Source: a virus
Length of the DNA: 64,000 nt
IMG/VR virus record: IMGVR_UViG_3300010389_000013
Location: 9 to 64,008 of that record
Strand: one strand, 5' to 3'
The first letter of the stretch is position 1; each line of letters begins with the position of its first letter. Shown here one piece after another: positions 22,959 through 37,397 of this stretch. The notes beneath the pieces were generated by a model. The model saw nothing but the letters and a program-made list of their open reading frames with translations. It had not been told where the DNA came from and did no database searches. Both the position numbers and the translations under genes were made by a program.

Positions 22959-25900
22959 TCAGAGTTCCATCAACCACCAACCGCGTAGTGATGGTGGAAT
23001 TGTTCTTGCATCTGCAGATCCTTCAATGTCAACCGAACCAGCGTAAACTAGACCGAATGATGCATTTCTAGACTGAATGACAAGTTCGCCTGAATCCCAT
23101 GCTGTTGTTAGTGTTTGGTTAGCACCAGCGTCAATTCTTGATCCAGTTGTATCACCTTGAATTGCAGTAGCGATATTGTTAATCTTCTTCGCTCTGATGA
23201 TTAGACTTGTGTTGTATGTCAGGTTTCCACTGAGTTCAACAAATCTGATCATATCACCAGTTTGAGCATTATCTGGTAGATAAAGAACCATATTGCTACC
23301 GCTAGAAGCATTGACCATGTAGTTGTTATTAACTTGTAGTGGGTTGTCCTGTTGCTGACCAATGCCAGTTGTTGGATCAAACGCGACATAAGTGTGTCTT
23401 CTACCACCATTGCCAGTCCAATACTTCTCAATTCCGAAGGAGTCAATAGCGTTGTTCTGATAGATTCTAAAGTCTTTAGCACCCTCAGTTCCACCAACTC
23501 CCGTTCCACCAAGGTTGTCAATGTGGAACATGACTTCAGTTCCCTGCTCATCCTCATAGAGCTTACCTTTCTGGTAATAACGCTCACCAAGATAAACATC
23601 ACCTTCGCGGTTTGTAACTCTAAATGAAGTCTCAGTAGAGCAGATGCCATTCTGCTGACAATCATCATAGTAGACTTTCAGATCACCATAGAATGTAGCA
23701 GCACCCTTGAGGGTCATGCCATTAGTATTTTCAATGGGGTCTTCAATAGATCCGTCACCAGCGTGACCATCATCATTGGAGATAGAAAGAACTAGAGTCT
23801 GTCCATCAGAACCATACATCCTGAATGCACCACTGTATAGTGTGACATCATCATAGATCTTAGTATTACCACCACCAAATAGATCAACAATTGGTGTTGT
23901 AACTGCATTAGGATATCTGATGCTCTTAGGAAGTTTAATCGCAAAGAATGCATCAAGAGATCCATCAACACTATCTGGCAAGAAGAACTCATTACCAATT
24001 CTAACGAGAGTGATATAATCAAGTTTTGGTGAGATTAGATCAGCATCACGGAGTGTGATTTCTAGTCTTAGATCACTGGTGTTTGGTGTTCTTGCCTTGA
24101 GTGCAGTAGCACGTGCTCCTTGTGTTGCGGGAATATCATGTAGGAGTGTTGTTGTTCTGTCATACTTATCAAGTTTGACAACATTGACACCAGCAGCGAA
24201 GTTTTGTGCTGTTGTTCCTTCTTTTCCACGACCGCCAGTAGGATATCCAGCATTGCTGGAAGTTGGTAGGAAGAAATTACCACTCTGTTCGTATGGAGTG
24301 TCTGTAATTTGAATGATCTCAATCTGAGATCCATCAACATACATTGCACATAGATCACCGACGCTAAATGCATCAAGATTTGACTGAATTTGAATGTTGC
24401 TAGTAGCAGCAACGATAGAAGTTGCGAGAGTTGTGAATGGTCCACCACTAATTACAGACTGTGGATTGTGTCTATAAACATGTACTGCATCGGTGTCAGC
24501 GGTATAAGCTGCAGGTGAAGTTCCAAATGCCTCAGCAACCATGAATACAGTACCATGGACATTTCCAATGGTTGTATCACCCGTGCAGGTATCAACCTCA
24601 AAGGTTGTGATTGGAATTGTATTACCATTTGTGATGGTAAGTTTGTTGTTGGTTGGTGCGTTAGTAAATGGAGTTGTGCAGCTACCATTTATAGACAGTT
24701 GACCGTTAATGGTTGTGGTTTCTGAATTGAAAATTGTATCGCCAGTTGTTGTGTCAACCTCAAATACAGTCTCTTCATTTGCAGTATCACAACCATTCTT
24801 GATCTTGAACTTCTTGGCAATTTGATCAAGAAGTTCCTTGACCTTGAAGACTTCACCAATATCAAATACACTGTTGTTTGCACTTGATTCTCTACCGATG
24901 ATTACATAATCACCGATGGCAATAGAACCACCAAACTGTGCGAGATAAACGTTCTCATCATTACCAACATCATCAATTGCTTGCTCGGTCCAAGTAGCAT
25001 CAAACTGTACGATACACTTGTAGATAGCAGTTCTATCTGGATGTGCAGTGCTGACACCAGTGAAAGTACCGAATGGTTCTCTTTCAACAACAATGTAGTA
25101 AGGGGCAATGCTAATTCTTGGTAGAGAAACAACTCTTACAAATTCAACATTGCTTCCAACTGAGTTGGTATTGTATCTGAAATTGGTGATGCCATAGTTG
25201 TCATATTGATATCCACTGATGACCTGCTGATAAATCTGGAATGTAACACCAGCACCTTGTGACTGAATTGGAATGTCAAGTTGCAGAGTGGCATAATTCT
25301 TAGATTGATCAACCCATCTTACAAATGTTGGCCAAGTAGATGGATCATTATCAGTCAGATCTGTTGGTGCGATGAATCCCGCAGAAGTCCATGTTACACC
25401 ATTATCGGTGGAATAACGGATCTGTAGTCCTTCATTTTCAGCATCTGGTATTTCGCCACCATTGCTACCATTACCAACAAAAACATCAATCTCAACACTA
25501 GTGACAGATCCATTGTTGTTCAAGAATGAAGCATCAATTTCACTGAAAGTGACGTAACGTGGACCAGTTGTAGTTTCTTGGAAGATTGAACGGAATCCAA
25601 GATATCTCTGACCAGCGTCAAAACCACCATCGTTTCCTACACCAGTACCAGAATTAAAGACTCTAACACCGCCTCCAACGTCTGCAATAATGCCCTGTGG
25701 AGCATTGCCATCAAGGTAGGTGCCGAACTGTGCTTCTACAACAGATGCTGTTGCAGAGTCAGGAGAATCAATCAACAGGATGTCATTCTCTTGGAAGTAT
25801 GGATTGCCATTAGCATCCAGTGACTCTCTGAGAAGTGGTAGATAGTATTGGTTACCAGTTAGTGCTGGTAATGTCTGAGGTTCAATCTCTGGGTTGCCAC

Positions 25901-28900
25901 CGATGTTGGTGATTTCCTGCTGATAGTTAACACCACCCCAGTTGCCGCTACCAACCGTGTCAACCTCGTTATACTGAGAATCTCCACTGACATATCTCTG
26001 AACGTCAATTAGATCAACATTGCTATTGAACAAGTTGTTGCCAAGAATACCAGTTACATGAGCAATTCTGTTACTTCCTGCTTGTGCTCTAGTTGCAACA
26101 AATGAGTATGATGCAAATCCACCACATAGAGTCATATCAGAGTTGAATCTAGCAGTAGAATCAACGATCAGATTGTTTCTGATTGTGGTGCTACCACCCT
26201 GACCACCGATGGTGATCTGTGATGCGTTGGTAGCAAAGTCAAGGACAGAAGTTGCACTGTTTCCTGCGAAGAACTCAACAGTTCCTGCAGTAGATGACAA
26301 TCTAACAGTGTCAGTTAGACCTCTTCTGGTTCCTAACTGGAAGTCACCAGCAGTCTTGAATGACTTAGTACCAATCTGAGTGAATGATAGTGATTCGTTG
26401 TTGTTATATGCACCACCAATGGTGATCTTAGAGATGTTAGATTCGGTGTCTGGTGTATTGCCGATCCAGATGTTGCTATGCAGAGATGCATTGCCAACGT
26501 AGATGAACTGATCCTCAGTTGTGGTATTGAGTAAGTTTAGAGTTCCTACCTTGTTACCAACATTAAGTGTACCAACGAAAGGTGTATCAGTAAATAGGTT
26601 GACAGTTCCAGTTGTCTGTGAAGTTCTAACTTCAGCAACTGTACCGTCATCGCCATTGACTTCAATGTCATGCTCAAAGCGAGCATCATCAGTGAATCTT
26701 GATAGACCATCAACAACTAGTGCTCTGTCTAGTTCAGCGTTGGTTACGTTAATACCAACACGACCACCGTTTGTAGTAGCAACTCTTAGTGTTGCCTCAT
26801 TGTTTGGAGTTGCACTATCACCACCAACTAGAAGTGCATTGTCCTGTGCAACCTCAGTTCTGTTAGCATATACACTGTGATCAAGGAAGTCAGAGATAGT
26901 CTTACCACTGATGAATGCAGTACCAACAACGTCTAGGTTTGCACGTGGATCAGTGTTAACATCAGTCCATGCAGTTTGATAAGCATCATGCTCTGCTCTT
27001 GCTACAGTATTGATACCAAGCTTGAAGTCACCGATTGTTCCAGTTGTGGTTCTGATTGACTCAGCACCAAGAACACCAAACTCTTTCCAAGAAGAGTTGG
27101 AGAACTCCATTCTTACATTTGGATTCAGAGCATATTCAGCAGACCAAAGTCTTGGGTTATCGTTGGAAACATTACCTCTGTTCTCAACGATTGCAATCTG
27201 ACAAGATTGTGCGGTAGGATCAAATCCATTTGCAATGATCTGCCAGGTTCCATTGAATCCAGAATCACTGAAGTTACTGATTCTAATCTGTGATCCACTC
27301 GTAACACCAATCTGTTCGTTGGATAGGTTGTTACCCCAGTTGATTGTAATGACAGTGCTGCCATTCATCTGGAGGTTAGCAATGTTCGCAGTTGGAACAA
27401 TAGCGAAGAAGTTAGCGTAGATCCATCCAAGTGAACCAGTTCTGCCTACCTCATTGCCCTTGAGCAGCATATCGCCTGCCTTAGGACCACCAGCATTGCC
27501 GTACTGTACTGCCTGAAGTGAATCAAGTGATGTACCAAGACCAGTGCTATAGAGTGGCGTCTGGTTTGGTGCCATGTTGGATCCTTCAGAACCAACTACA
27601 TGGTTCTGGATCTTGTATCCTTGTGCTGCACCATTTGATCCGCGTGGGTTAAACTGGAAGACTGAAGCAGCAACTCTGTTTCTTGCGATAACAATATCGC
27701 CATTTGTATCCTGGTTAAGGAACTGATTTGTCTTGTCAAGTGATCCATCATCACCATCGCTAGGTGATACGTTAGAGATGACCTGCAGTGCATAGTCTCT
27801 AACTCTACCAAGAACGTTGATGACAACTGGTGAGTTGAATGTGCTTGGACGATCCTGTGCATCACCACCATTGACAGTGATGTACTCGTTGAAGGTTACA
27901 GGAGTATCAAACGTGGTAACGAGGTTACCGATATCTTCTGTATCATCATCCGAATCAACTAACTGTGCAGATTCTAGGAACTCTTCCTCACCAGTGATAG
28001 CGTCAATCTTACGGTTACCGATGTAGAGGTCACCGTTGGAGTTTAGACCAGTGTAGAAGACGAGACCACCATCTTGCTTCTTAGACTGTGCATAGAAGTC
28101 TTGAGTTGGGGTGAGAACAATCTCCTGTCTAGCAGGTAGACCAGTGGAGTAGTTACCAGGACCGAAACCAAGATATTCAAACGTGTGGTTACCAGCACGA
28201 GCAATAGATGGTCTACGAAGTTCAACGTAGAGTCTCTGATCAGAAACAACTGTGCTGTCACCAGCAATAGGAATACGACGATCTTCTGAACCAGAAGATG
28301 CATTACCCTTCTGTGCTCTAAGTCTGTTATCTACAGTAGAAGAGACCTGAGTGTAGGTGTTCTGTGACAGTGCAGGTTGCGAAGTGAAGTCAAGTGCCAT
28401 CTCACGGGTCATTGAACCCTTGAAGTCGTTGACTGTAACTAGACCGTGAGTGTAGTTATCTGCAGCAGAATATGTTGCAGGAGGATCAACCTCAGTTGCA
28501 TCCAACTGCTTGAACCAAAGAGGATCGTTCTTGTAGTTCAGTGGATATAGTTTGCTGATTGGCTGGGAGAACTTGAAGTTTCTGAAGTTACCCTGGTTAC
28601 CAGCACCAGTTGGGAATGGTGAGATGTTACCACGAACAGCGGTTAGATAGTAAATACCATCTTGCTGACCGAAGATACGACGCTGAATCTCTTCCGTGTC
28701 AAAGATGTAGAAGGTATCTTCTAGTTCACCAGCATCGGTTACAGACTCAACATAGTATTGGATGTTAGCATCGTCAGTGATGATATCACCAGGAGTTACA
28801 CTGTAGACTGCAGCACCATTCTGTCTGTAGTAGTATTCTGGATATCCCTTAGCGATAAGATCCTTGATGTACAGAGACTTACCAAAGTCTGCATCTGCAA

Positions 28901-31900
28901 GTAGATCAGCAAATACAGCACCCTGTGAGAATCTGATGTTATCAAACTGAGAGTAATCAATCTTACCAACAACACCCTTGAGGATGAGGTGCCACTCATT
29001 AGTTCCAGGAACGTTGAGTACAGCATGTAGATAACCGTAACCAGAAGAGTTACCGAACCACTCAATTCTGTTAGTAGCATCTAGTGACTGAGTTCTATCA
29101 GCAACGAATGTTCCTCCCTGAGGAGCAGTAATCTTGACCGTTGTGAATGTCTCATTTAGTAGACCGAGGTTTGTAATGCCCTGGTCAAAGACGGTCATTT
29201 CTAGATATTCATTGCCATCATTAGCGTCAATGAAATATCTACCAGACTGAATTGTCATGGAGACATAGTTTTGTGTCTCAATGATCTTGGCGTACTGAGT
29301 GCCACCTACGATGTCCTTCTTAAATGGATCGTATGCGTTCTCTTCATTGAGGCTGTTAGTGATAAAGTCTTGTGCGGTATAACCGATGACTTCATTTAAC
29401 TGCACTGGGTTGAAGAAACGTGCCTTGGTTACAGAACCAGCAACAGGTCTCAGTACAAGTTTTTGCGGGAGAAGTTTTCTGGTCTCGTCCTTACGCATCT
29501 TAATGGAGAAACCATTGATGGGATCACGGACTGCCTGCAGATACTTAGGAATGACATAACGTAGACGATAGATACGCTCATCTGCATCTCTTTCGTCCTT
29601 AATTCTTTCAAACCAGGAGTCATTGGTCTTATCTTGACCCGAGAGATCACTGTATGCAGTCTCATGGAATCTGGTGAGGATGCTGTAATCATACTCAGGA
29701 TCACTAGAATTCTCAGAGTGATTCTCTACCTGTAGATACCACTTACCATATACAGTTGGGGTTGTACCTGGGGTTGGATATGTTGGGTCAAATCGCATTG
29801 GCGATTCACGCTTATCAGCAAATGCCGAGAAGTCGTATGTACCAGGCTGGAATGTAATTGGGTTTACATCACCAATTGCATCTGCCTTGGTAGCGTGAAT
29901 AGTAAATACTTTCTCGTTCTGATAACGTGCCCAGAAGAATCTATCTTCCTTGATTCTACCATTACCATCAGCAACCGATGGATCAGCAGCATATGCAGCA
30001 CCAACTAAAGGTAGTGCTCCACCCTCGTTTGCACGGAAGAATACCTGATGACCAGTGATGTTATTGAATGGAACATCAAAGATGTGAGGAACATCAGTTC
30101 TGATACCAGAGTTGACAGCAGTATCAAGCACACAGGAATACTGGTGTAGATCATAGTTGTCATCTAGAACAAACTGATAAACATCAATCTCAATATCTGG
30201 ATCAATAGCTTCTACTTCAGCAGAGTGGATGTAGATACCAGCAGCAGCGTTCTCTTTGCTGCTTGCAAGCATCAACTTGGTTTGATCAGATCCATCAAAC
30301 GAACCAGCGGAAGAGTAATCTTCTGGTTTGGTAGTTCTACCAGGAGCGATGACATAATACTTCTCGTTGGTAGTGAAACCGTTTGGAAGTCTGATCTTTC
30401 TCTTGTCAACGTCAACGTACTGATTAGTTACTGTATCGTAGCGAGGACGTGGTACAAGGCGTATAGGAGTTCCAGTCTCTAGATCGTGTGGATTAGATCC
30501 CGAACCGTCTCTCAGGGTCCATACAGTCGCTCTAGAAGCGAGTTCTGTGGTGAGTTGGGTTGGTTCGTTTCTTGGAACAGTGTTGAGACCAGTCTGAATA
30601 ATCGTCGTGATGTTTGCAAAATACTGACGAATCGTGTTTGCCTGGTCAACACACTCAGGATATGTGGTGTGCTGAGTGATCGTCTCATCAACAGTAGGTG
30701 TATACTCGCTGGTGTAAGTTCCAGCGGTTAGAGTGAAGTATAGATAGGAGTTAGTGCTGTTAGCATTAGCATTAACAGAAGGACCGAATGCAAGTCCAAG
30801 TGGAGATGGTTGTCTCTCAATAGACTCTAGGTAACCAGGATTTGCAATGGTGTCGGTAATGATCTGGAACAGCGTTGTGATCGCAGATGCAACATTCTGA
30901 CAAGAACCATTAGAAACAGTTCTCTGGATGCTATTGAGTGAAGAAGGAGTAAGAACTGCGTTCTGTACAATACCGAATAGAGTATTGATTGTAGTTCTAG
31001 CATCCTCACAGGATCCGACAGAAACGCTTCTAGCAACACCAGCAAGAGATGCAGGGGTGGTTACTGCGTTAGTTACGATAAGAGTAAGATCGGTGATAGT
31101 TGAAGCAACGTCTGCACACTGAGTTGCAGCGTCAATAGTGATAGTATTATCAAACGTTTGAGTGAAACCATGAGATCCAGCGATCGTGATAGGATCGTTT
31201 CTCATTGCCTGAATCATCAGGTCACGTGCAAAGTTTAGAGACTCAACTGTCTGTGACTCTTCACCAGCAACATGAGCACCCTGTACATATAGGTTTGCCA
31301 TGTCCCAGGTACGATCATTACCACCATATGCAGTGTTGTAGGTTACTTCCTCAACAAAGTCCATGATGTCATCAATACAATCCTGTGCATTACCTGTTGG
31401 GGTTGTGAATCCAGGATTGTTTGCAAGCATCAAATCATATGCTTCATATGCAATCAGATTCTTATTAGCAATGATGAGATTACGTGCATCACCATTACGA
31501 TCAACTACAGGATCTGGTTCTTCGTAAGTGATGGTGTTGTCATAAGTTTGTGATAGACCATGTGAACCAACGACGAGAACCTTCTGGTTTCTCATTACCT
31601 GAGCAGCCATCTCTTTTGCCTGCTCAAAGACATAATTGGTCTCTGCCTCTTCTCCTGCTACATGAGCACCATGTACATAAGAATAGGATGCATCCCAAGT
31701 CTTATCGTTGCCACCATATGCTAGGTTATCAGCAACTGCTTCTAGGAGATCTACAACGTCATCAATACAGTTCTGATTGCCACCAGGGACAGAGAATGCA
31801 GGATAGACAGTGAGCATTCTCTCAACTGCCTCATTAGCGATGAGGTTCTTATTAGCGAGAATGAGATCTCTTGCATCACCATAGCGATCCTTAACTAGTT

Positions 31901-34775
31901 CAGGTGCCTCATAAGTGATGCTGGTGTCCTTAGTCTGAGTCAGACCATGTGTACCAAAGATAAAGACATCTTCATTGCGTTGTACCTGAATTGCCATGTC
32001 CTTGGCATACTCAAATACACGAATTGACTCTTGCTCTTCACCAGTGATATGACTACCAGTTTCATAGAGATATGCAGCATCCCATGTCTCTGCGTTACCG
32101 CCATATGCAGTGTTCTCAGCAACTGCTTCTAGAACGTCTACAACGTCATCAATACAGTTCTGGTCACCACCAGGAACAGAGAAACCAGGGAAGTCAAGAT
32201 GCATTCTAGCAACTGCTTCTGCTGCGATGAAGTTCTTGTTAGCAAGGATAAGATCCTTTGCATCACCATAACGATCAGTTACGAGTTTCTTCTCAGAGTA
32301 AATTGCCTTCTGACCAATCTCAATGGTTGTGCTGTCAATAACACGCTTAACATAGGTGTTATCTGGGATGACAGGAGATGCAGGGCGAGTAGCACCATTG
32401 TTTAGTTTGCCATCAGTAAACTGAGAAGGATCGTAGTCAGCAACCAGCATACCAGTGACAATACCAGAAGTATCGCCAACATTGACAATTGAGCTAGCAG
32501 CAGTTGTTGAACAACCCTGACGCTGATATGAGAAGTTTCTCATCGCAGCAATTGCTAGATCTCTAGCGTAGTTGTAACCCTCTAGAGTCTCTGTTAGTTC
32601 ACCAGTGATGTATGATAGGTTATTACCAACGTAGTATGCTTCTGCTGCTTGTATGGTGTTGATGTTGCCACCGAGTCTCAAGTCTTGTACAGTAGCATCA
32701 ATTAGATAACCAATGTCACGACGGCACTTGTCAATCGTGATGTTCTCTTTGATTGTGATTGCTGGATACTTACCAGTGATGTATCCATATGCTTCATATG
32801 CAATGAATTCTTTGTTTTCTTCAATTCTGTTTGCAGCGTCAAGGTTCTTGTGGTTGATTGTGACGCCACTGGGATTCAAGATGTCAGCAGTTGCAGTAAA
32901 CTTCTTGAAACCATTTGGGGTTAGAGTTGCATTGAAGATGTTGTCAGCACCAGCACTTCTAGGTGTCAGTTTGACATAGAGTTTTTCATCAGTTCTTGTA
33001 CCGATTCTAAAACCATCAATAGACGCTGCTGGACGTGATGTTGGATCAAATCCATCATCATTGCCTAGGTATAGTTTGGTATGGTTGTTGGGATCGTTGG
33101 ATGCCTTAACGTCAAGCGTATAGTAAGCATTCTTCTTCGTGTTGCCAGTAGTTTCTGGAACAATCTGAGGAGGAATAATATCAGTGATGTATCCACCCTT
33201 ATCCTGGTTGAACGCAAATCCTTTGAAACCAATTGCGTGGAGTGAGGTGTTACCGAAGTTGGAGTTAGAGTTGGTGATGGACATGTCACCACCACTTTCC
33301 ATTAGGAAGTGATCAGCGAAACCAACAGCGAAGATAGAAACGTTCTGGATGAATGCGTCTTCAGTTGCTCTAACGTGGAAGTTTCTCCAGTCATCCTTCC
33401 AGTATGCATCACCCTTGGTGTGATAAGGAACCGTAGCAAATGCATCAGTTAGAGATGCTTGGTTAAAGGTATTAGTAAACTCGTCGTAACGGATGAATGC
33501 TCTATCGTCTTTCTGTAGCGAAACACCCGTATACTGAGCGATAACCATTGACTTAAAGCCTGTTGCCTTAAGACCGTTTGCCCAGATACCGCAAATACCC
33601 CAGGTAGAACGAATGGAGCAGTTAAAGACATATGGTGATGCAGACTCAACGGAGTCAACCTCTGCCTTAACAACAGCGTTAGCACTCAGACCATTCTGTG
33701 CCGTATAAGTTGTGCCGCTAACGAGACTTACAGTCGTTCCAAGGGCAGCAACTGTACCAGCAATCTGATAACTAAACTTCCTTGCATCTACAAGGTCAAT
33801 AGATGAAATTGGGAACGTACCATTGAGTTGATCGTCAAGACCATTGTTCTCAATAGCGATAAACTGGTTTTTGAAGTAACCGTGGTTAACTTTTGTGGTG
33901 ACTTCAACAGTGATGGTTCCTGCTGGTGAGGAATCTGTACACTTGATGCTCTCAATAGAGCGAAGGTCAGATAGAGGACCAACAATTCTAGTCTCCTGAA
34001 TTCTATCAGAGAATTCGCCAGGATCATCAATAGTTGGTTGATACTCAGAGAATGCCTTTGCAATCTTTTGATAGTACAGACCTAATTCTTCTTTGTCTGC
34101 ATATTCAAAGACAGTCAGTTTGTGGTGCGAATAGTTAGGAATCGCGAGTTGATCCCACTGACCATTTTGATAGTAAACTTTACCTACACCTTCGTTTCTA
34201 TCATAAAGTGGCGAAGATGGTTCTAGGTCACCGTCTTTAATGGTGAACTGCCAGAAGTAACATGCACCAGTTACGTTAAAGATTGCTGAACGTCTTTCTA
34301 GTTTATCAGCAGGATCAGGAACGTATAGTGGGCGAACAACGGTTCTACGAAGGTCATAACCAACGAGGGATGAACCTCTAGGTAAGATAGCACCACCTTC
34401 GGTGTTGTTGAAGAGATATAGTTTGTTGTTTGGATCAGAAATGTCTAGGTTTGAACTATCAGTCCACTCGTTTAGTGCTTGATCAAACGAAAAAGCATCA
34501 ATACCATTAGTATCTACAAGACCTGGGCGGTTATCAATATAGTGATTACCAGGCATCAACATGATCGTGAACTGGTCAAAACGATCATTGTCAGGACCAG
34601 GAAGATACGAATACCTAGCGATTTCTAGGAATGCTCTCTGGATAGACTTGAATGGTCTAATTGGTGAATTACCTCTGTTATTCAGCTCATCCGACGCATT
34701 AAAATCGTCAGGGGAGACATACAAATACTTACCAGTTTTAGAGCTGATAAGGTTGTCAAGTCTAGTCAAAGCCAT
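22959..34775 (-). CDS. giant (about 3940 aa) tail fiber / virion structural protein
   Basis: Uninterrupted ORF; MALTRLDNL...YV N-terminus, beta-helix-like first 600 aa, internal tandem repeats; late promoter upstream. Confidence 0.9.
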   Translation of the reverse strand: MALTRLDNLISSKTGKYLYVSPDDFNASDELNNRGNSPIRPFKSIQRAFLEIARYSYLPGPDNDRFDQFTIMLMPGNHYIDNRPGLVDTNGIDAFSFDQALNEWTDSSNLDISDPNNKLYLFNNTEGGAILPRGSSLVGYDLRRTVVRPLYVPDPADKLERRSAIFNVTGACYFWQFTIKDGDLEPSSPLYDRNEGVGKVYYQNGQWDQLAIPNYSHHKLTVFEYADKEELGLYYQKIAKAFSEYQPTIDDPGEFSDRIQETRIVGPLSDLRSIESIKCTDSSPAGTITVEVTTKVNHGYFKNQFIAIENNGLDDQLNGTFPISSIDLVDARKFSYQIAGTVAALGTTVSLVSGTTYTAQNGLSANAVVKAEVDSVESASPYVFNCSIRSTWGICGIWANGLKATGFKSMVIAQYTGVSLQKDDRAFIRYDEFTNTFNQASLTDAFATVPYHTKGDAYWKDDWRNFHVRATEDAFIQNVSIFAVGFADHFLMESGGDMSITNSNSNFGNTSLHAIGFKGFAFNQDKGGYITDIIPPQIVPETTGNTKKNAYYTLDVKASNDPNNHTKLYLGNDDGFDPTSRPAASIDGFRIGTRTDEKLYVKLTPRSAGADNIFNATLTPNGFKKFTATADILNPSGVTINHKNLDAANRIEENKEFIAYEAYGYITGKYPAITIKENITIDKCRRDIGYLIDATVQDLRLGGNINTIQAAEAYYVGNNLSYITGELTETLEGYNYARDLAIAAMRNFSYQRQGCSTTAASSIVNVGDTSGIVTGMLVADYDPSQFTDGKLNNGATRPASPVIPDNTYVKRVIDSTTIEIGQKAIYSEKKLVTDRYGDAKDLILANKNFIAAEAVARMHLDFPGFSVPGGDQNCIDDVVDVLEAVAENTAYGGNAETWDAAYLYETGSHITGEEQESIRVFEYAKDMAIQVQRNEDVFIFGTHGLTQTKDTSITYEAPELVKDRYGDARDLILANKNLIANEAVERMLTVYPAFSVPGGNQNCIDDVVDLLEAVADNLAYGGNDKTWDASYSYVHGAHVAGEEAETNYVFEQAKEMAAQVMRNQKVLVVGSHGLSQTYDNTITYEEPDPVVDRNGDARNLIIANKNLIAYEAYDLMLANNPGFTTPTGNAQDCIDDIMDFVEEVTYNTAYGGNDRTWDMANLYVQGAHVAGEESQTVESLNFARDLMIQAMRNDPITIAGSHGFTQTFDNTITIDAATQCADVASTITDLTLIVTNAVTTPASLAGVARSVSVGSCEDARTTINTLFGIVQNAVLTPSSLNSIQRTVSNGSCQNVASAITTLFQIITDTIANPGYLESIERQPSPLGLAFGPSVNANANSTNSYLYFTLTAGTYTSEYTPTVDETITQHTTYPECVDQANTIRQYFANITTIIQTGLNTVPRNEPTQLTTELASRATVWTLRDGSGSNPHDLETGTPIRLVPRPRYDTVTNQYVDVDKRKIRLPNGFTTNEKYYVIAPGRTTKPEDYSSAGSFDGSDQTKLMLASSKENAAAGIYIHSAEVEAIDPDIEIDVYQFVLDDNYDLHQYSCVLDTAVNSGIRTDVPHIFDVPFNNITGHQVFFRANEGGALPLVGAAYAADPSVADGNGRIKEDRFFWARYQNEKVFTIHATKADAIGDVNPITFQPGTYDFSAFADKRESPMRFDPTYPTPGTTPTVYGKWYLQVENHSENSSDPEYDYSILTRFHETAYSDLSGQDKTNDSWFERIKDERDADERIYRLRYVIPKYLQAVRDPINGFSIKMRKDETRKLLPQKLVLRPVAGSVTKARFFNPVQLNEVIGYTAQDFITNSLNEENAYDPFKKDIVGGTQYAKIIETQNYVSMTIQSGRYFIDANDGNEYLEMTVFDQGITNLGLLNETFTTVKITAPQGGTFVADRTQSLDATNRIEWFGNSSGYGYLHAVLNVPGTNEWHLILKGVVGKIDYSQFDNIRFSQGAVFADLLADADFGKSLYIKDLIAKGYPEYYYRQNGAAVYSVTPGDIITDDANIQYYVESVTDAGELEDTFYIFDTEEIQRRIFGQQDGIYYLTAVRGNISPFPTGAGNQGNFRNFKFSQPISKLYPLNYKNDPLWFKQLDATEVDPPATYSAADNYTHGLVTVNDFKGSMTREMALDFTSQPALSQNTYTQVSSTVDNRLRAQKGNASSGSEDRRIPIAGDSTVVSDQRLYVELRRPSIARAGNHTFEYLGFGPGNYSTGLPARQEIVLTPTQDFYAQSKKQDGGLVFYTGLNSNGDLYIGNRKIDAITGEEEFLESAQLVDSDDDTEDIGNLVTTFDTPVTFNEYITVNGGDAQDRPSTFNSPVVINVLGRVRDYALQVISNVSPSDGDDGSLDKTNQFLNQDTNGDIVIARNRVAASVFQFNPRGSNGAAQGYKIQNHVVGSEGSNMAPNQTPLYSTGLGTSLDSLQAVQYGNAGGPKAGDMLLKGNEVGRTGSLGWIYANFFAIVPTANIANLQMNGSTVITINWGNNLSNEQIGVTSGSQIRISNFSDSGFNGTWQIIANGFDPTAQSCQIAIVENRGNVSNDNPRLWSAEYALNPNVRMEFSNSSWKEFGVLGAESIRTTTGTIGDFKLGINTVARAEHDAYQTAWTDVNTDPRANLDVVGTAFISGKTISDFLDHSVYANRTEVAQDNALLVGGDSATPNNEATLRVATTNGGRVGINVTNAELDRALVVDGLSRFTDDARFEHDIEVNGDDGTVAEVRTSQTTGTVNLFTDTPFVGTLNVGNKVGTLNLLNTTTEDQFIYVGNASLHSNIWIGNTPDTESNISKITIGGAYNNNESLSFTQIGTKSFKTAGDFQLGTRRGLTDTVRLSSTAGTVEFFAGNSATSVLDFATNASQITIGGQGGSTTIRNNLIVDSTARFNSDMTLCGGFASYSFVATRAQAGSNRIAHVTGILGNNLFNSNVDLIDVQRYVSGDSQYNEVDTVGSGNWGGVNYQQEITNIGGNPEIEPQTLPALTGNQYYLPLLRESLDANGNPYFQENDILLIDSPDSATASVVEAQFGTYLDGNAPQGIIADVGGGVRVFNSGTGVGNDGGFDAGQRYLGFRSIFQETTTGPRYVTFSEIDASFLNNNGSVTSVEIDVFVGNGSNGGEIPDAENEGLQIRYSTDNGVTWTSAGFIAPTDLTDNDPSTWPTFVRWVDQSKNYATLQLDIPIQSQGAGVTFQIYQQVISGYQYDNYGITNFRYNTNSVGSNVEFVRVVSLPRISIAPYYIVVEREPFGTFTGVSTAHPDRTAIYKCIVQFDATWTEQAIDDVGNDENVYLAQFGGSIAIGDYVIIGRESSANNSVFDIGEVFKVKELLDQIAKKFKIKNGCDTANEETVFEVDTTTGDTIFNSETTTINGQLSINGSCTTPFTNAPTNNKLTITNGNTIPITTFEVDTCTGDTTIGNVHGTVFMVAEAFGTSPAAYTADTDAVHVYRHNPQSVISGGPFTTLATSIVAATSNIQIQSNLDAFSVGDLCAMYVDGSQIEIIQITDTPYEQSGNFFLPTSSNAGYPTGGRGKEGTTAQNFAAGVNVVKLDKYDRTTTLLHDIPATQGARATALKARTPNTSDLRLEITLRDADLISPKLDYITLVRIGNEFFLPDSVDGSLDAFFAIKLPKSIRYPNAVTTPIVDLFGGGNTKIYDDVTLYSGAFRMYGSDGQTLVLSISNDDGHAGDGSIEDPIENTNGMTLKGAATFYGDLKVYYDDCQQNGICSTETSFRVTNREGDVYLGERYYQKGKLYEDEQGTEVMFHIDNLGGTGVGGTEGAKDFRIYQNNAIDSFGIEKYWTGNGGRRHTYVAFDPTTGIGQQQDNPLQVNNNYMVNASSGSNMVLYLPDNAQTGDMIRFVELSGNLTYNTSLIIRAKKINNIATAIQGDTTGSRIDAGANQTLTTAWDSGELVIQSRNASFGLVYAGSVDIEGSADARTIPPSLRGWWLMEL
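31116..32276 (-). repeat. three tandem about 129-aa (387-nt) coding repeats in the giant fiber gene
   Basis: DRYGDAKDL / DRYGDARDL / DRNGDARNL begin at 32276, 31889 and 31502; each unit has CIDD and YGGN..TWD. Confidence 0.9.
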
Positions 34776-34815
34776 ATTACTCAACCGCTGCGGTTACTAA
34801 GATCTGATCTCAGAT

Positions 34816-34823: not shown

Positions 34824-34843
34824 CAACTCTAATGGGCGGTTTA

Positions 34844-34917
34844 CGGGACTGATGGGACTTGAACCCACGGCACCCTGCGTGACAGGCAGGTACTCTAACC
34901 AACTGAGCTACAGCCCC
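34844..34917 (-). tRNA. trnD: tRNA-Asp(GUC)
   Basis: GGGGCTGTAGCTCAGTTGG...CCTGC-CT-GTC-AC-GCAGG...GGTTCAAGTCCC; no encoded CCA. Confidence 0.95.
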
Positions 34918-34920
34918 AAA

Positions 34921-34992
34921 CTCCCAAGGCAGGATTTGAACCTGCGACCGAGCGATTAACAGTCGCCTGCTCTGCCGCTGAGCTACTTGGGA
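34921..34992 (-). tRNA. trnN: tRNA-Asn(GUU)
   Basis: TCCCAAG acceptor stem, anticodon arm GGCGA-CT-GTT-AA-TCGCT, T-loop GTTCAAAT. Confidence 0.95.
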
Positions 34993-35017
34993 ATGTTCGC
35001 TATTTGCGAATAGCGAA

Positions 35018-35089
35018 TGGAGAATAGGGGATTTGAACCCCTAACCCCCTGCTTGCAAAGCAGGTGCTCTACCGTTGAGCTAATTCCCC
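35018..35089 (-). tRNA. trnA: tRNA-Ala(UGC)
   Basis: GGGGAAT/ATTCTCC-A stem with G3:U70; anticodon TGC. Confidence 0.95.
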
Positions 35090-35093
35090 GAAA

Positions 35094-35368
35094 GGGGCAT
35101 TTCACCCCAAAGAGTCTGTTGGATTAGAAGGTAGACTTAACCCCCATCTCCCCTTATGGGTCAGGCAACAGCAGCTGCTTGACGGGAGAATGCAACGATG
35201 TTATTCGCTGCGGTGTCAGATGTGTTTGCATCTATTTGGTGCTTATCCAAGCAGGTTTCAGTCACGCTCCTTATACCCCGTCAAAACCATGGCACCCCCT
35301 CGCATGGAGGTGAGGGGAATTGAACCCCTGTCCGAAATGTAGGTGGCGTCACCTATTCTCTCAAAAGA
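35094..35368 (-). ncRNA. ssrA: circularly permuted (two-piece) tmRNA, cyanobacterial type
   Basis: T-arm GGGGTTCAATTCCCC and acceptor 3' strand CACCTCC-A (35312-35305); 5-nt spacer TGCGA; 5' strand GGGGGTG (35299-35293, G3:U70) then CCATGGTTTTGACGGGG; tag frame ending NNIVAFSRQAAAVA-stop (35161); terminal hairpin 35094-35108. Confidence 0.93.
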
Positions 35369-35373
35369 GAGAA

Positions 35374-35447
35374 AGCCACAAGTCGGACTTGAACCGACGA
35401 CCTACGGTTTACAAAACCGTTGCTCTATCCAGCTGAGCTATAGTGGC
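35374..35447 (-). tRNA. trnT: tRNA-Thr(UGU)
   Basis: GCCACTA acceptor stem, arm ACGGT-TT-TGT-AA-ACCGT, GGTTCAAGTCC. Confidence 0.95.
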
Positions 35448-36846: not shown

Positions 36847-36930
36847 TAGGAGTGGGGGGACTTGAACCCCCACGAGTTAATTCTCAGCGGATTTTAAGTC
36901 CGATACGTCTACCGATTCCGTCACACTCCC
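36847..36930 (-). tRNA. trnL: tRNA-Leu(UAA)
   Basis: GGGAGTGTGACGGAATCGGTAGAC...TCGGA-CT-TAA-AA-TCCGC, long variable arm, GGTTCAAGTCC. Confidence 0.95.
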
Positions 36931-37397
36931 AAGGGTTTGTCTGTTTTCTGGAATTCATATATGACATTGCTGCCCCATACTACTTTTCCATCTCGCCATC
37001 CTTGGTCTCTACTCTTATAGTAGGAACCGTTGAACTTCACGGTAGATTTTAGCATACCGCCGTTGATAATGCAAGCATCAGTTTTCACTCTGCCATCATA
37101 ATGATCTCCAGCATCAAAGAACATCATATCACAGCAGTGATTGTGTTCTTTCCAGTCTGGTTCCCAGTTCTGAACTATGATAACTCCTTGCTGCTCAAAG
37201 ACTTTATGCCATTTTTGCCTGTAAGGATTATCTTCACCTATGTAATGATACCACTGCTTTGATTTAAACAAATTGTCACCGATACGCTCCCACTTGAGTT
37301 TGATGTGGGCATATCTGGCAGGATCTCTTGCTGCTTGAAACCAATTGTCGTAGAACCCTTCAAGTTTATCACAAAATTCTTTTACCACAACCAACAA
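36921..37397 (-). CDS. cpeT: CpcT/CpeT-like bilin lyase, copy B
   Basis: LEGFYDNWFQAARDPARYAHI...NPYRQ...CDM.F...D.G...WGS. Confidence 0.8.
   Translation of the reverse strand: MLVVVKEFCDKLEGFYDNWFQAARDPARYAHIKLKWERIGDNLFKSKQWYHYIGEDNPYRQKWHKVFEQQGVIIVQNWEPDWKEHNHCCDMMFFDAGDHYDGRVKTDACIINGGMLKSTVKFNGSYYKSRDQGWRDGKVVWGSNVIYEFQKTDKPLGV

Follow-up and report, generated by a model that had tools for sequence, protein, structure and literature searches.

What tag does a cyanophage tmRNA add to the proteins that it rescues? The gene described here offers two codons at which its tag could begin, and its tag does not end as host tags do. It lies in a 64-kb stretch of DNA (the window), which is nearly the entire IMG/VR virus record and has an estimated completeness of about 33%. 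The nearest relatives of its tRNA/tmRNA region are T4-like Synechococcus myoviruses, and the contig is a cyanomyovirus contig. ARAGORN found a minus-strand cluster of tRNA-Thr, a permuted tmRNA, tRNA-Ala, tRNA-Asn, and tRNA-Asp. The cluster contains the following:

35374 to 35447, minus strand: tRNA-Thr, in the same tRNA cluster, directly upstream of the tmRNA (ARAGORN).
35094 to 35390, minus strand: permuted (two-piece) cyanobacterial-type tmRNA gene, full Rfam match (RF01851, RF04321, and ARAGORN).
34843 to 35089, minus strand: tRNA-Ala, tRNA-Asn, and tRNA-Asp, directly downstream of the tmRNA (ARAGORN and Rfam).

Upstream of the cluster lie genes for a 2OG-Fe(II) oxygenase and a bilin reductase, together with two cpeT genes (Pfam CpeT, 100.9 and 45.5 bits). 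These cpeT ORFs terminate within tRNA-Thr (35425-35447) and tRNA-Leu (36921-36931), respectively, so tRNA 5' processing of a joint transcript would strip their stop codons. S-RSM4 has no tmRNA match, and cpeT is listed among the features under its tRNA-cluster match. The adjacency of cpeT and tRNAs is thus not tied to possession of a tmRNA. A scan for the consensus only returned two putative near-consensus sigma-70-type promoters (TTGACA, 17 or 18 nt, TACAAT; 11/12 matches each) at 35673-35645 and 35562-35533 on the minus strand. Both lie inside a cpeT gene, just upstream of the tRNA-Thr/tmRNA/tRNA cluster and on the same strand. They would fit early expression of the tmRNA alongside the tRNAs. 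Directly downstream of the cluster is a 3,941-codon ORF (window 22959-34784, minus strand). The matching place in Sf-FS3 holds a large peptidase-S74-domain protein. In S-SSM7 it holds a tail fiber protein, with one gene in between.

The gene matched the Rfam models cyano_tmRNA (RF01851; 165.8 bits at 35094-35390, gathering score 70) and tmRNA_permuted (RF04321; 86 bits, gathering score 47). ARAGORN called a permuted tmRNA at 35070-35394 with an identical 22-residue tag. Both the sequence and ARAGORN confirm the circular permutation, in which the T-arm and acceptor 3' strand come before the acceptor 5' strand and the coding part. In the order of transcription, its parts are as follows:

35305 to 35353, minus strand: acceptor piece, with the 5' strand of helix P2, the T-arm, the acceptor 3' strand, and the discriminator (sequence and Rfam structure line).
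35329-35325 and 35317-35313, minus strand: T-arm stem, with its loop at 35324-35318 (sequence and Rfam structure line).
35312-35306, minus strand: acceptor 3' strand CACCUCC, followed by discriminator A at 35305 (sequence and Rfam structure line).
35300 to 35304, minus strand: intervening sequence UGCGA, 5 nt, predicted to be removed when the precursor is cut in two (sequence).
35293 to 35299, minus strand: acceptor 5' strand GGGGGUG (sequence).
35238 to 35252, minus strand: pseudoknot 1 core, a hairpin GCUU-GGAU-AAGC with a downstream CC that can pair with the GG of the loop (sequence and Rfam structure line).
35230 to 35234, minus strand: putative frame-setting pentanucleotide UAGAU, with A(-4) at 35233 (sequence and phage/host comparison).
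35218 to 35233, minus strand: small hairpin over the resume codon (covariation and minimum-energy fold).
35227 to 35229, minus strand: inferred resume codon GCA (Ala) (ARAGORN and comparison).
35209 to 35229, minus strand: seven-codon phage-specific extension A N T S D T A (phage/host comparison).
35164 to 35208, minus strand: host-like tag part, the ANNIVAFSR core and QAAAVA, starting at GCG, the resume codon in hosts (comparison).
35161 to 35163, minus strand: stop UGA, within the closing helix of the tag frame, on its 3' strand (sequence and fold).
35094 to 35108, minus strand: 3'-terminal hairpin of the coding piece (Rfam structure).

The acceptor stem is 7 bp (GGGGGUG/CACCUCC). Its G3 (35297) pairs with U70 (35308), the alanine identity pair. 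CCA is not encoded after the discriminator. All features required for charging are kept (paired acceptor stem, G3-U70, discriminator A). The 48 phage relatives that could be parsed all keep G3-U70 and a fully paired acceptor stem, with 8 compensatory variants. The pseudoknot 1 segment is conserved across the phages, and its second stem (CC/GG) was read by eye. The tRNA-Ala begins 4 nt past the 3'-terminal hairpin.

Two other calls at this locus were set aside. A one-piece tmRNA called by ARAGORN at 35018-35279 is an artefact that uses the adjacent tRNA-Ala (a 74.9-bit tRNA) as its 3' half. A 50-codon plus-strand ORF over the tmRNA (35190-35342) is not a credible gene, given the RNA evidence. 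The intervening sequence is 4 to 9 nt in most phages and 67 to 90 nt in others (L007, L008, L032, L052, and others, with a gene of about 412 nt). It spans 5 to 109 nt in hosts, and a very short intervening sequence was for that reason rejected as a phage-specific trait.

On the minus strand, AAAUAGAU is followed by GCA at 35229-35227, and the frame is open to TGA at 35163-35161. It begins GCA AAC ACA TCT GAC ACC GCA and continues from GCG (35208-35206) as AAT AAC ATC GTT GCA TTC TCC CGT CAA GCA GCT GCT GTT GCC. From GCA it encodes 22 residues, which are 7 extra codons, the ANNIVAFSR core, and QAAAVA. The original prediction had named this 22-residue frame, with GCA at 35229-35227 and GCG at 35208, and an end in VA, not AA. 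Sequence reading and the ARAGORN tag agree with it on the frame and on both codons, and the sequence confirms the VA end.

Host tmRNAs were retrieved by a pattern scan of species-representative genomes together with ARAGORN. The set contained 88 distinct two-piece tmRNAs from Synechococcus, Prochlorococcus, Cyanobium, and relatives. Their tags have 16 residues, ANNIV-(R/S/A)-FSRQ-x-APVAA, and PVAA ends 88 of the 88. The resume codon is GCG (GCU in a few) and follows UAAC(A/U). The statement that cyanobacterial tags start with ANNIV and end in two alanines holds for every two-piece picocyanobacterial tmRNA recovered. AVA or AIA ends do occur in a few one-piece tags of cellular cyanobacteria.

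Phage tmRNAs were retrieved by three scans of IMG/VR and an isolate collection. The set contained 79 distinct cyanobacterial-type permuted tmRNA genes (107 instances) on viral contigs, and they come from several cyanophage genera. The cultured phages with a tmRNA are Sf-FS3, S-CAM1, S-CAM3, S-SSM7, and S-SSM6a; the single-cell virus AG-345-P14 has one as well. Before the AN(N/K)IV core, 67 of the distinct genes encode an extension of 7 codons, 5 encode one of 6 codons, and 7 encode none. There are 22 distinct extension peptides, including ANTSD(T/V/S)A, AKTSD(T/V)A, AKTDTPA, AKTSTPA, AKNIAP, AKDIDTA, and ANNIDTA. A pattern of 6 to 7 codons, A-(N/K/E)-x-x-x-(x)-(A/P), then AN(N/K)IV, preceded by A(G/U)(A/C)U with A at -4, fits 72/79 phage genes. 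The window tmRNA fits it too (UAGAU, ANTSDTA, ANNIV), and its tag neither starts at ANNIV nor ends in PVAA as host tags do. Comparison of these 79 phage and 88 host tmRNAs backs the prediction of an N-terminally extended tag with its best resume context at GCA. Judged from sequence, the extension is a lineage-wide feature of cyanophage tmRNAs.

In a maximum-likelihood tree (unrooted), a single branch with 100/100 support parts the host from the phage tmRNAs. This split argues that the phage genes are an old phage lineage and not recent captures. A separate group of viral contigs (L098, L112, L159, L290, L299, L309, and also L142) has no extension and has short tags ending in VAV. These tags read ANNIVSFRR or ANKIVSFRR and then TAVAV, and the group lies at the far end of the phage part from the hosts. 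Five loci with a six-codon extension (AKNIAP, AENIAP, or AKNIEA; L284, L294, L296, L311, and L322) branch beside the hosts. Their extension is followed by a tag that is identical or nearly identical to that of hosts, including Arg and PVAA. At L284 the internal GCG, too, is preceded by A at -4, which makes a second resume point conceivable in that gene.

The tail of the window tag, QAAAVA, is nearest to the phage QAAPVAA type (L006 and L016), with a Pro-to-Ala change and one Ala codon lost. Its closing residues, AAAVA, are small and hydrophobic, as expected of a tmRNA tag. The helix closing the frame is retained in this allele, and its loop goes from 7 to 4 nt (-17.2 versus -16.5 kcal/mol). 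In two independent DNA runs, contigs spanning 35044-35403 and 35076-35402 show zero differences from the window, and the identical tag is present on JGI metagenome contig L333. The identical allele in independent metagenomes means that the AVA end is real and not an assembly error. The exact QAAAVA-coding 21-mer had no match in IMG/VR beyond the record of the window itself. AVA is a rare local allele, found in 1 of the 107 phage instances; the other ends are ATA (37), VAA (36), VAV (17), ATV (11), VTA (4), and ALA (1). The shortest tails have 5 residues and the longest about 22.

One functional reading of the extension and the non-AA end is a weakened or re-routed degron, by which ribosomes would be freed while the products escaped proteolysis or went to a different protease or adaptor. 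Resumption at GCA would allow for this, but we consider it rather unlikely. The invariant VAA end of hosts is not kept by the phage tags at the family level. With PVAA in 88/88 host two-piece tags, diverse phage ends, and widely variable tail length, there is room for an altered fate of tagged proteins, and changed handling across the phage family is possible. In Synechocystis, tags ending in V (AAV and ASV) are weaker degrons than LVA (PMC2860132). The window tag ends in VA, however, and LVA is the most destabilizing ssrA variant tested in Synechocystis, as in E. coli (PMC2860132). The original prediction had suggested that a 7-residue insert and a VA end could redirect or weaken Clp proteolysis; weakening by the VA end is not favored, since LVA-type tags are strong degrons in Synechocystis. 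The AVA and AIA ends of some cellular one-piece tags also speak against a weakened degron. The phage ends are all small or aliphatic, and purifying selection on ANNIVAFSR would be expected if recognition still matters.

The start of the tag can be examined in the same gene sets. Resumption at the host-like GCG (35208) would give a 15-residue tag starting ANNIV. The 21-nt insert would then be an untranslated spacer or a structural hairpin between pseudoknot 1 and the frame. The GCG is the resume codon of hosts, and ARAGORN over-extends some host tags (e.g., VT + ANNIV), so its resume calls needed independent support. Over-extended cellular tags were called in L194, L220, L239, and L172 (VT + ANNIV or AQKQVT + ANNIV), starting within the UAAC(A/U) upstream element.

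Such support comes from the bases before each codon. The base at -4 of the GCN called by ARAGORN is A in 79/79 phage genes and in 88/88 hosts. The 72 extended phage genes have C (39), U (31), or rarely A (2) at this position before the internal GCG, so A(-4) is missing in 70/72. The original prediction had noted that the GCG of the window lacks the upstream UA, and the bases from -5 to -1 are indeed CCGCA. In E. coli, from which the rule of A at -4 is derived, A86 is the main frame determinant; a pyrimidine there destroys activity, and U85 to C is tolerated (PMC2481249). This tolerance fits the U/C variation at -5 in the phage tmRNAs. The window context also resembles E. coli UAGUC-GCA-AAC, as had been predicted: U(-5), A(-4), G(-3), and GCA AAC are common to both. 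Insert-free phage tmRNAs have a (C/U)AGAU-GCA-AA context immediately before ANNIV or ANKIV. Spacing gives the same result. The conserved CCUGCU motif lies 19 to 20 nt from the resume codon in phages and 21 to 23 nt in hosts; its distance to the internal GCG is 38 to 41 nt.

The insert also varies as a coding sequence. It is 18 or 21 nt only and stop-free across the 22 distinct peptides; a spacer would need neither this nor third-position variation. Codon 1 is GC(A/U/C) and codon 7 is GC(A/U), with only the wobble base varying among relatives. C(+2) of GCA is invariant despite its position in a hairpin loop. Among extension haplotypes, 14/19 one-step differences fall at third codon positions (binomial p = 4e-4), against 8/6/5 over the three positions in the 21 nt upstream and 24/25 at third positions in the ANNIVAFSR core; the counts come from related sequences that are not phylogenetically independent, and the contrast is nonetheless clear. 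Third-position variation in a stop-free insert of 18 or 21 nt indicates that the extension is translated, with weaker amino-acid constraint than in the core. The ANNIVAFSR core is, by these substitution counts, under strong purifying selection.

The resume codon is also covered by a small hairpin. Positions -4 to +1 (AGAUG) can pair with +8 to +12 (CAUCU), at 35218-35233 on the minus strand, and the hairpin is present in the minimum-energy fold of the window tmRNA. Across 48 distinct sequences, 80.8% of cells pair, versus 23 to 46% with a slid partner. The covariation score is 0.252 versus 0.071 for shuffled sequences, and 0/500 shuffles score as high. In two of the pairs, both bases change. 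From the AKTSTPA to the AKTDTPA allele, codon 4 changes from UCU to GAU and the non-coding upstream strand from AGAU to AUCU, which is exactly two compensating pairs (AGAUG/CAUCU versus AUCUG/CAGAU). These compensatory changes imply selection for the hairpin in phages. Conservation of the insert may therefore be partly at the RNA level, a point in favor of the structural spacer. Hosts have a different hairpin, GCGAAC with GUUCGY, which starts at +1, so that it begins at the resume codon; this too could favor GCG. In E. coli, a possible short helix at the resume codon is thought to block function when stabilized (PMC2481249); the phage helix differs in having compensatory changes. Because the hairpin pairs A(-4) and G(+1) and its E. 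coli analogue is regarded as inhibitory when stabilized, resumption in these phages might be modulated or depart from the simple picture.

Taking the base at -4, the spacing, and the coding pattern together, resumption is very likely at GCA 35229 and not at GCG 35208, and the untranslated spacer is very unlikely.

That the gene is a decaying or non-tagging copy, either functionless captured host DNA or an SmpB-titrating decoy like the tmRNA of mycobacteriophage DS6A, which has the tRNA-like domain (TLD) only, is highly improbable: phage tmRNA fragments and the TLD-only inhibitor are on record (PMC4131195), and no phage SmpB gene was found (window and five complete relatives), but the match to the models is full length, the acceptor stem has compensatory changes with G3-U70 kept, all 79 distinct genes, which span several cyanophage genera, have an intact frame, and the wobble-only variation of the core shows that the frame is read.

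Some alleles suggest how the extension arose. These encode ANNIDTA and then ANNIV, two copies that agree at 12 of their first 13 nt. Other alleles begin with AKNI, AENI, or AKDI. An in-frame tandem duplication of the first codons of the tag, or conversion between the copies, is probably the simplest account. The common A(N/K)TS form and the AKNI form have the nucleotide string AAAAACAUC in common, with a one-base shift. The A(N/K)TS form looks like the product of a frameshift and its compensation, with the nucleotides retained and the residues altered. Gain by duplication and loss in the insert-free phages are both compatible with the unrooted tree.

We favor the reading that the window tmRNA is a working phage copy of the picocyanobacterial two-piece tmRNA, which resumes at GCA, adds an extended tag, and uses host factors (probability of about 0.8). 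The identity, anatomy, conservation, and frame of the gene and the reality of its allele are shown; for its resumption point, processing, host-factor use, and degradation of tagged proteins, we infer the following course. The tmRNA would be transcribed together with the phage tRNA cluster. Host tRNA-processing enzymes (RNase P and others) would cut the precursor into an acceptor piece and a coding piece. The host CCA-adding enzyme and alanyl-tRNA synthetase would then complete and charge the acceptor (G3-U70). Host SmpB and EF-Tu would bring the phage tmRNA to ribosomes stalled on stop-less mRNAs in the infected cell. No SmpB gene was found in the 64-kb window or in five complete tmRNA-bearing cyanophage genomes, so the phage tmRNA would have to use that of the host. 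Resumption at GCA 35229-35227 would add the charged Ala and 22 encoded residues to the rescued chain. The first seven of these would be the phage-lineage-specific extension, which most probably arose by in-frame tandem duplication of the first tag codons and later drift. The tail would be variable among phages, with the window carrying a one-codon-shorter, Pro-to-Ala allele of the QAAPVAA type. The most likely role may be to keep ribosomes free as host transcription stops and mRNAs decay, with the stubs marked for proteolysis, as has been suggested for tmRNAs of other phages (PMC9004378).

The AVA-allele sequence was also present in contigs of two metatranscriptome libraries, where DNA carry-over is possible and contigs cannot show RNA ends. 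One metatranscriptome run contained a 144-nt contig (35094-35237) whose end coincides with the 3' end predicted for the coding piece (35094). Its word depth was above that of the gene part upstream of the tag (35246-35357). This depth and end are suggestive of an abundant stable RNA, although contig ends are weak evidence.

The window tmRNA shares most of its anatomy with the two-piece tmRNA (RF01851) of marine Synechococcus, Prochlorococcus, and Cyanobium. Both have the acceptor-3'-half-first order, the T-arm, the G3-U70 stem, P2, and the pseudoknot 1 hairpin. Both also have A at -4, the ANNIV-F-S-R core, a stop inside the closing helix, and a terminal hairpin. Unlike the host tmRNA, that of the window opens its frame with 7 extra codons, has Ala and not Arg after ANNIV, and ends its tag in AVA and not PVAA. 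It has UAGAU where hosts have UAACA, and its hairpin spans -4 to +12 whereas that of hosts starts at +1.

Homologous permuted tmRNAs, about 70 to 80% identical, are present in S-CAM1, S-CAM3, S-SSM7, S-SSM6a, Sf-FS3, and AG-345-P14. All of these encode 7-codon extensions before ANNIV (ANTSDSA, AKSSDTA, AKTSDVA, and AKTDTPA). Their tails differ from that of the window, being STVAA, a longer one ending in ELVTA, TRELATA, and IRQLATA, with AVA in none. Their GenBank records have no tmRNA annotation. Hypothetical-protein CDSs over the homologous tmRNAs at L003 1455-1595 (S-CAM3), L002 1836-2045 (Sf-FS3), and L330 1194-1412 (S-SSM7) are probably spurious, given the RNA evidence.

Phage-borne two-piece tmRNA is already known. 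S-CAM1 and S-CAM3 are listed as permuted-tmRNA carriers in Table S1 of Buchholz et al. 2022, who counted 53 two-piece tmRNAs in phage genomes (PMC9004378). Phage tmRNAs have been listed since the Bxz1 group (PMC4131195), and the 2025 tmRNA database processed RefSeq viruses too. OM43 phage Melnitz and the pelagimyophages (two-piece, alphaproteobacterial type), like the mycobacteriophage Bxz1 group and Bacillus phage G (one-piece), resemble the window phage: in each case a lytic phage has a complete tmRNA and depends on the SmpB of its host. Unlike theirs, the window tmRNA belongs to a different tmRNA lineage. The Rfam scan of the window reported no glutamine riboswitch within the tmRNA. We know of no conserved tag extension relative to the host described for the Melnitz, pelagimyophage, Bxz1, or phage G tmRNAs. 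These tmRNAs have been proposed to keep ribosomes available and to recycle amino acids (PMC9004378; PMC4131195). A literature search, with many journals outside its reach, found presence tabulations only and no published analysis of the tags, conserved extension, hairpin, or tail diversity of cyanophage tmRNAs. The lineage-wide tag extension is apparently undescribed.

For annotation, the gain is that cyanophage tmRNA genes are unannotated or overlaid by spurious protein calls in GenBank. For tmRNA biology, a resume region that occurs in natural duplicate lends itself to tests of how the frame is chosen.

A tmRNA carried by a phage is commonly regarded as a mere copy of the host gene. This abundant marine cyanophage lineage keeps a tag with defined differences from that of its hosts, namely, extra N-terminal residues, one fixed core substitution, and a free tail. 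A tentative further step, which we hold to be rather unlikely, is that cyanomyovirus tmRNAs are a phage-adapted trans-translation module. The conserved 6- to 7-residue extension and the freely varying tail would then mark phage-rescued proteins apart from host-tagged ones and alter the adaptor or protease used, or the speed. The selected hairpin would tune or protect the resumption site during infection. Several such phages are in culture with a host (S-CAM1, S-CAM3, S-SSM7, and Sf-FS3, with Synechococcus WH7803, WH8109, or WH8102), so the resumption point and tag stability are directly measurable. The tag differences are thus a testable handle on what the phage aims at in trans-translation, whether to recycle ribosomes and no more or to give the tagged proteins a particular fate.
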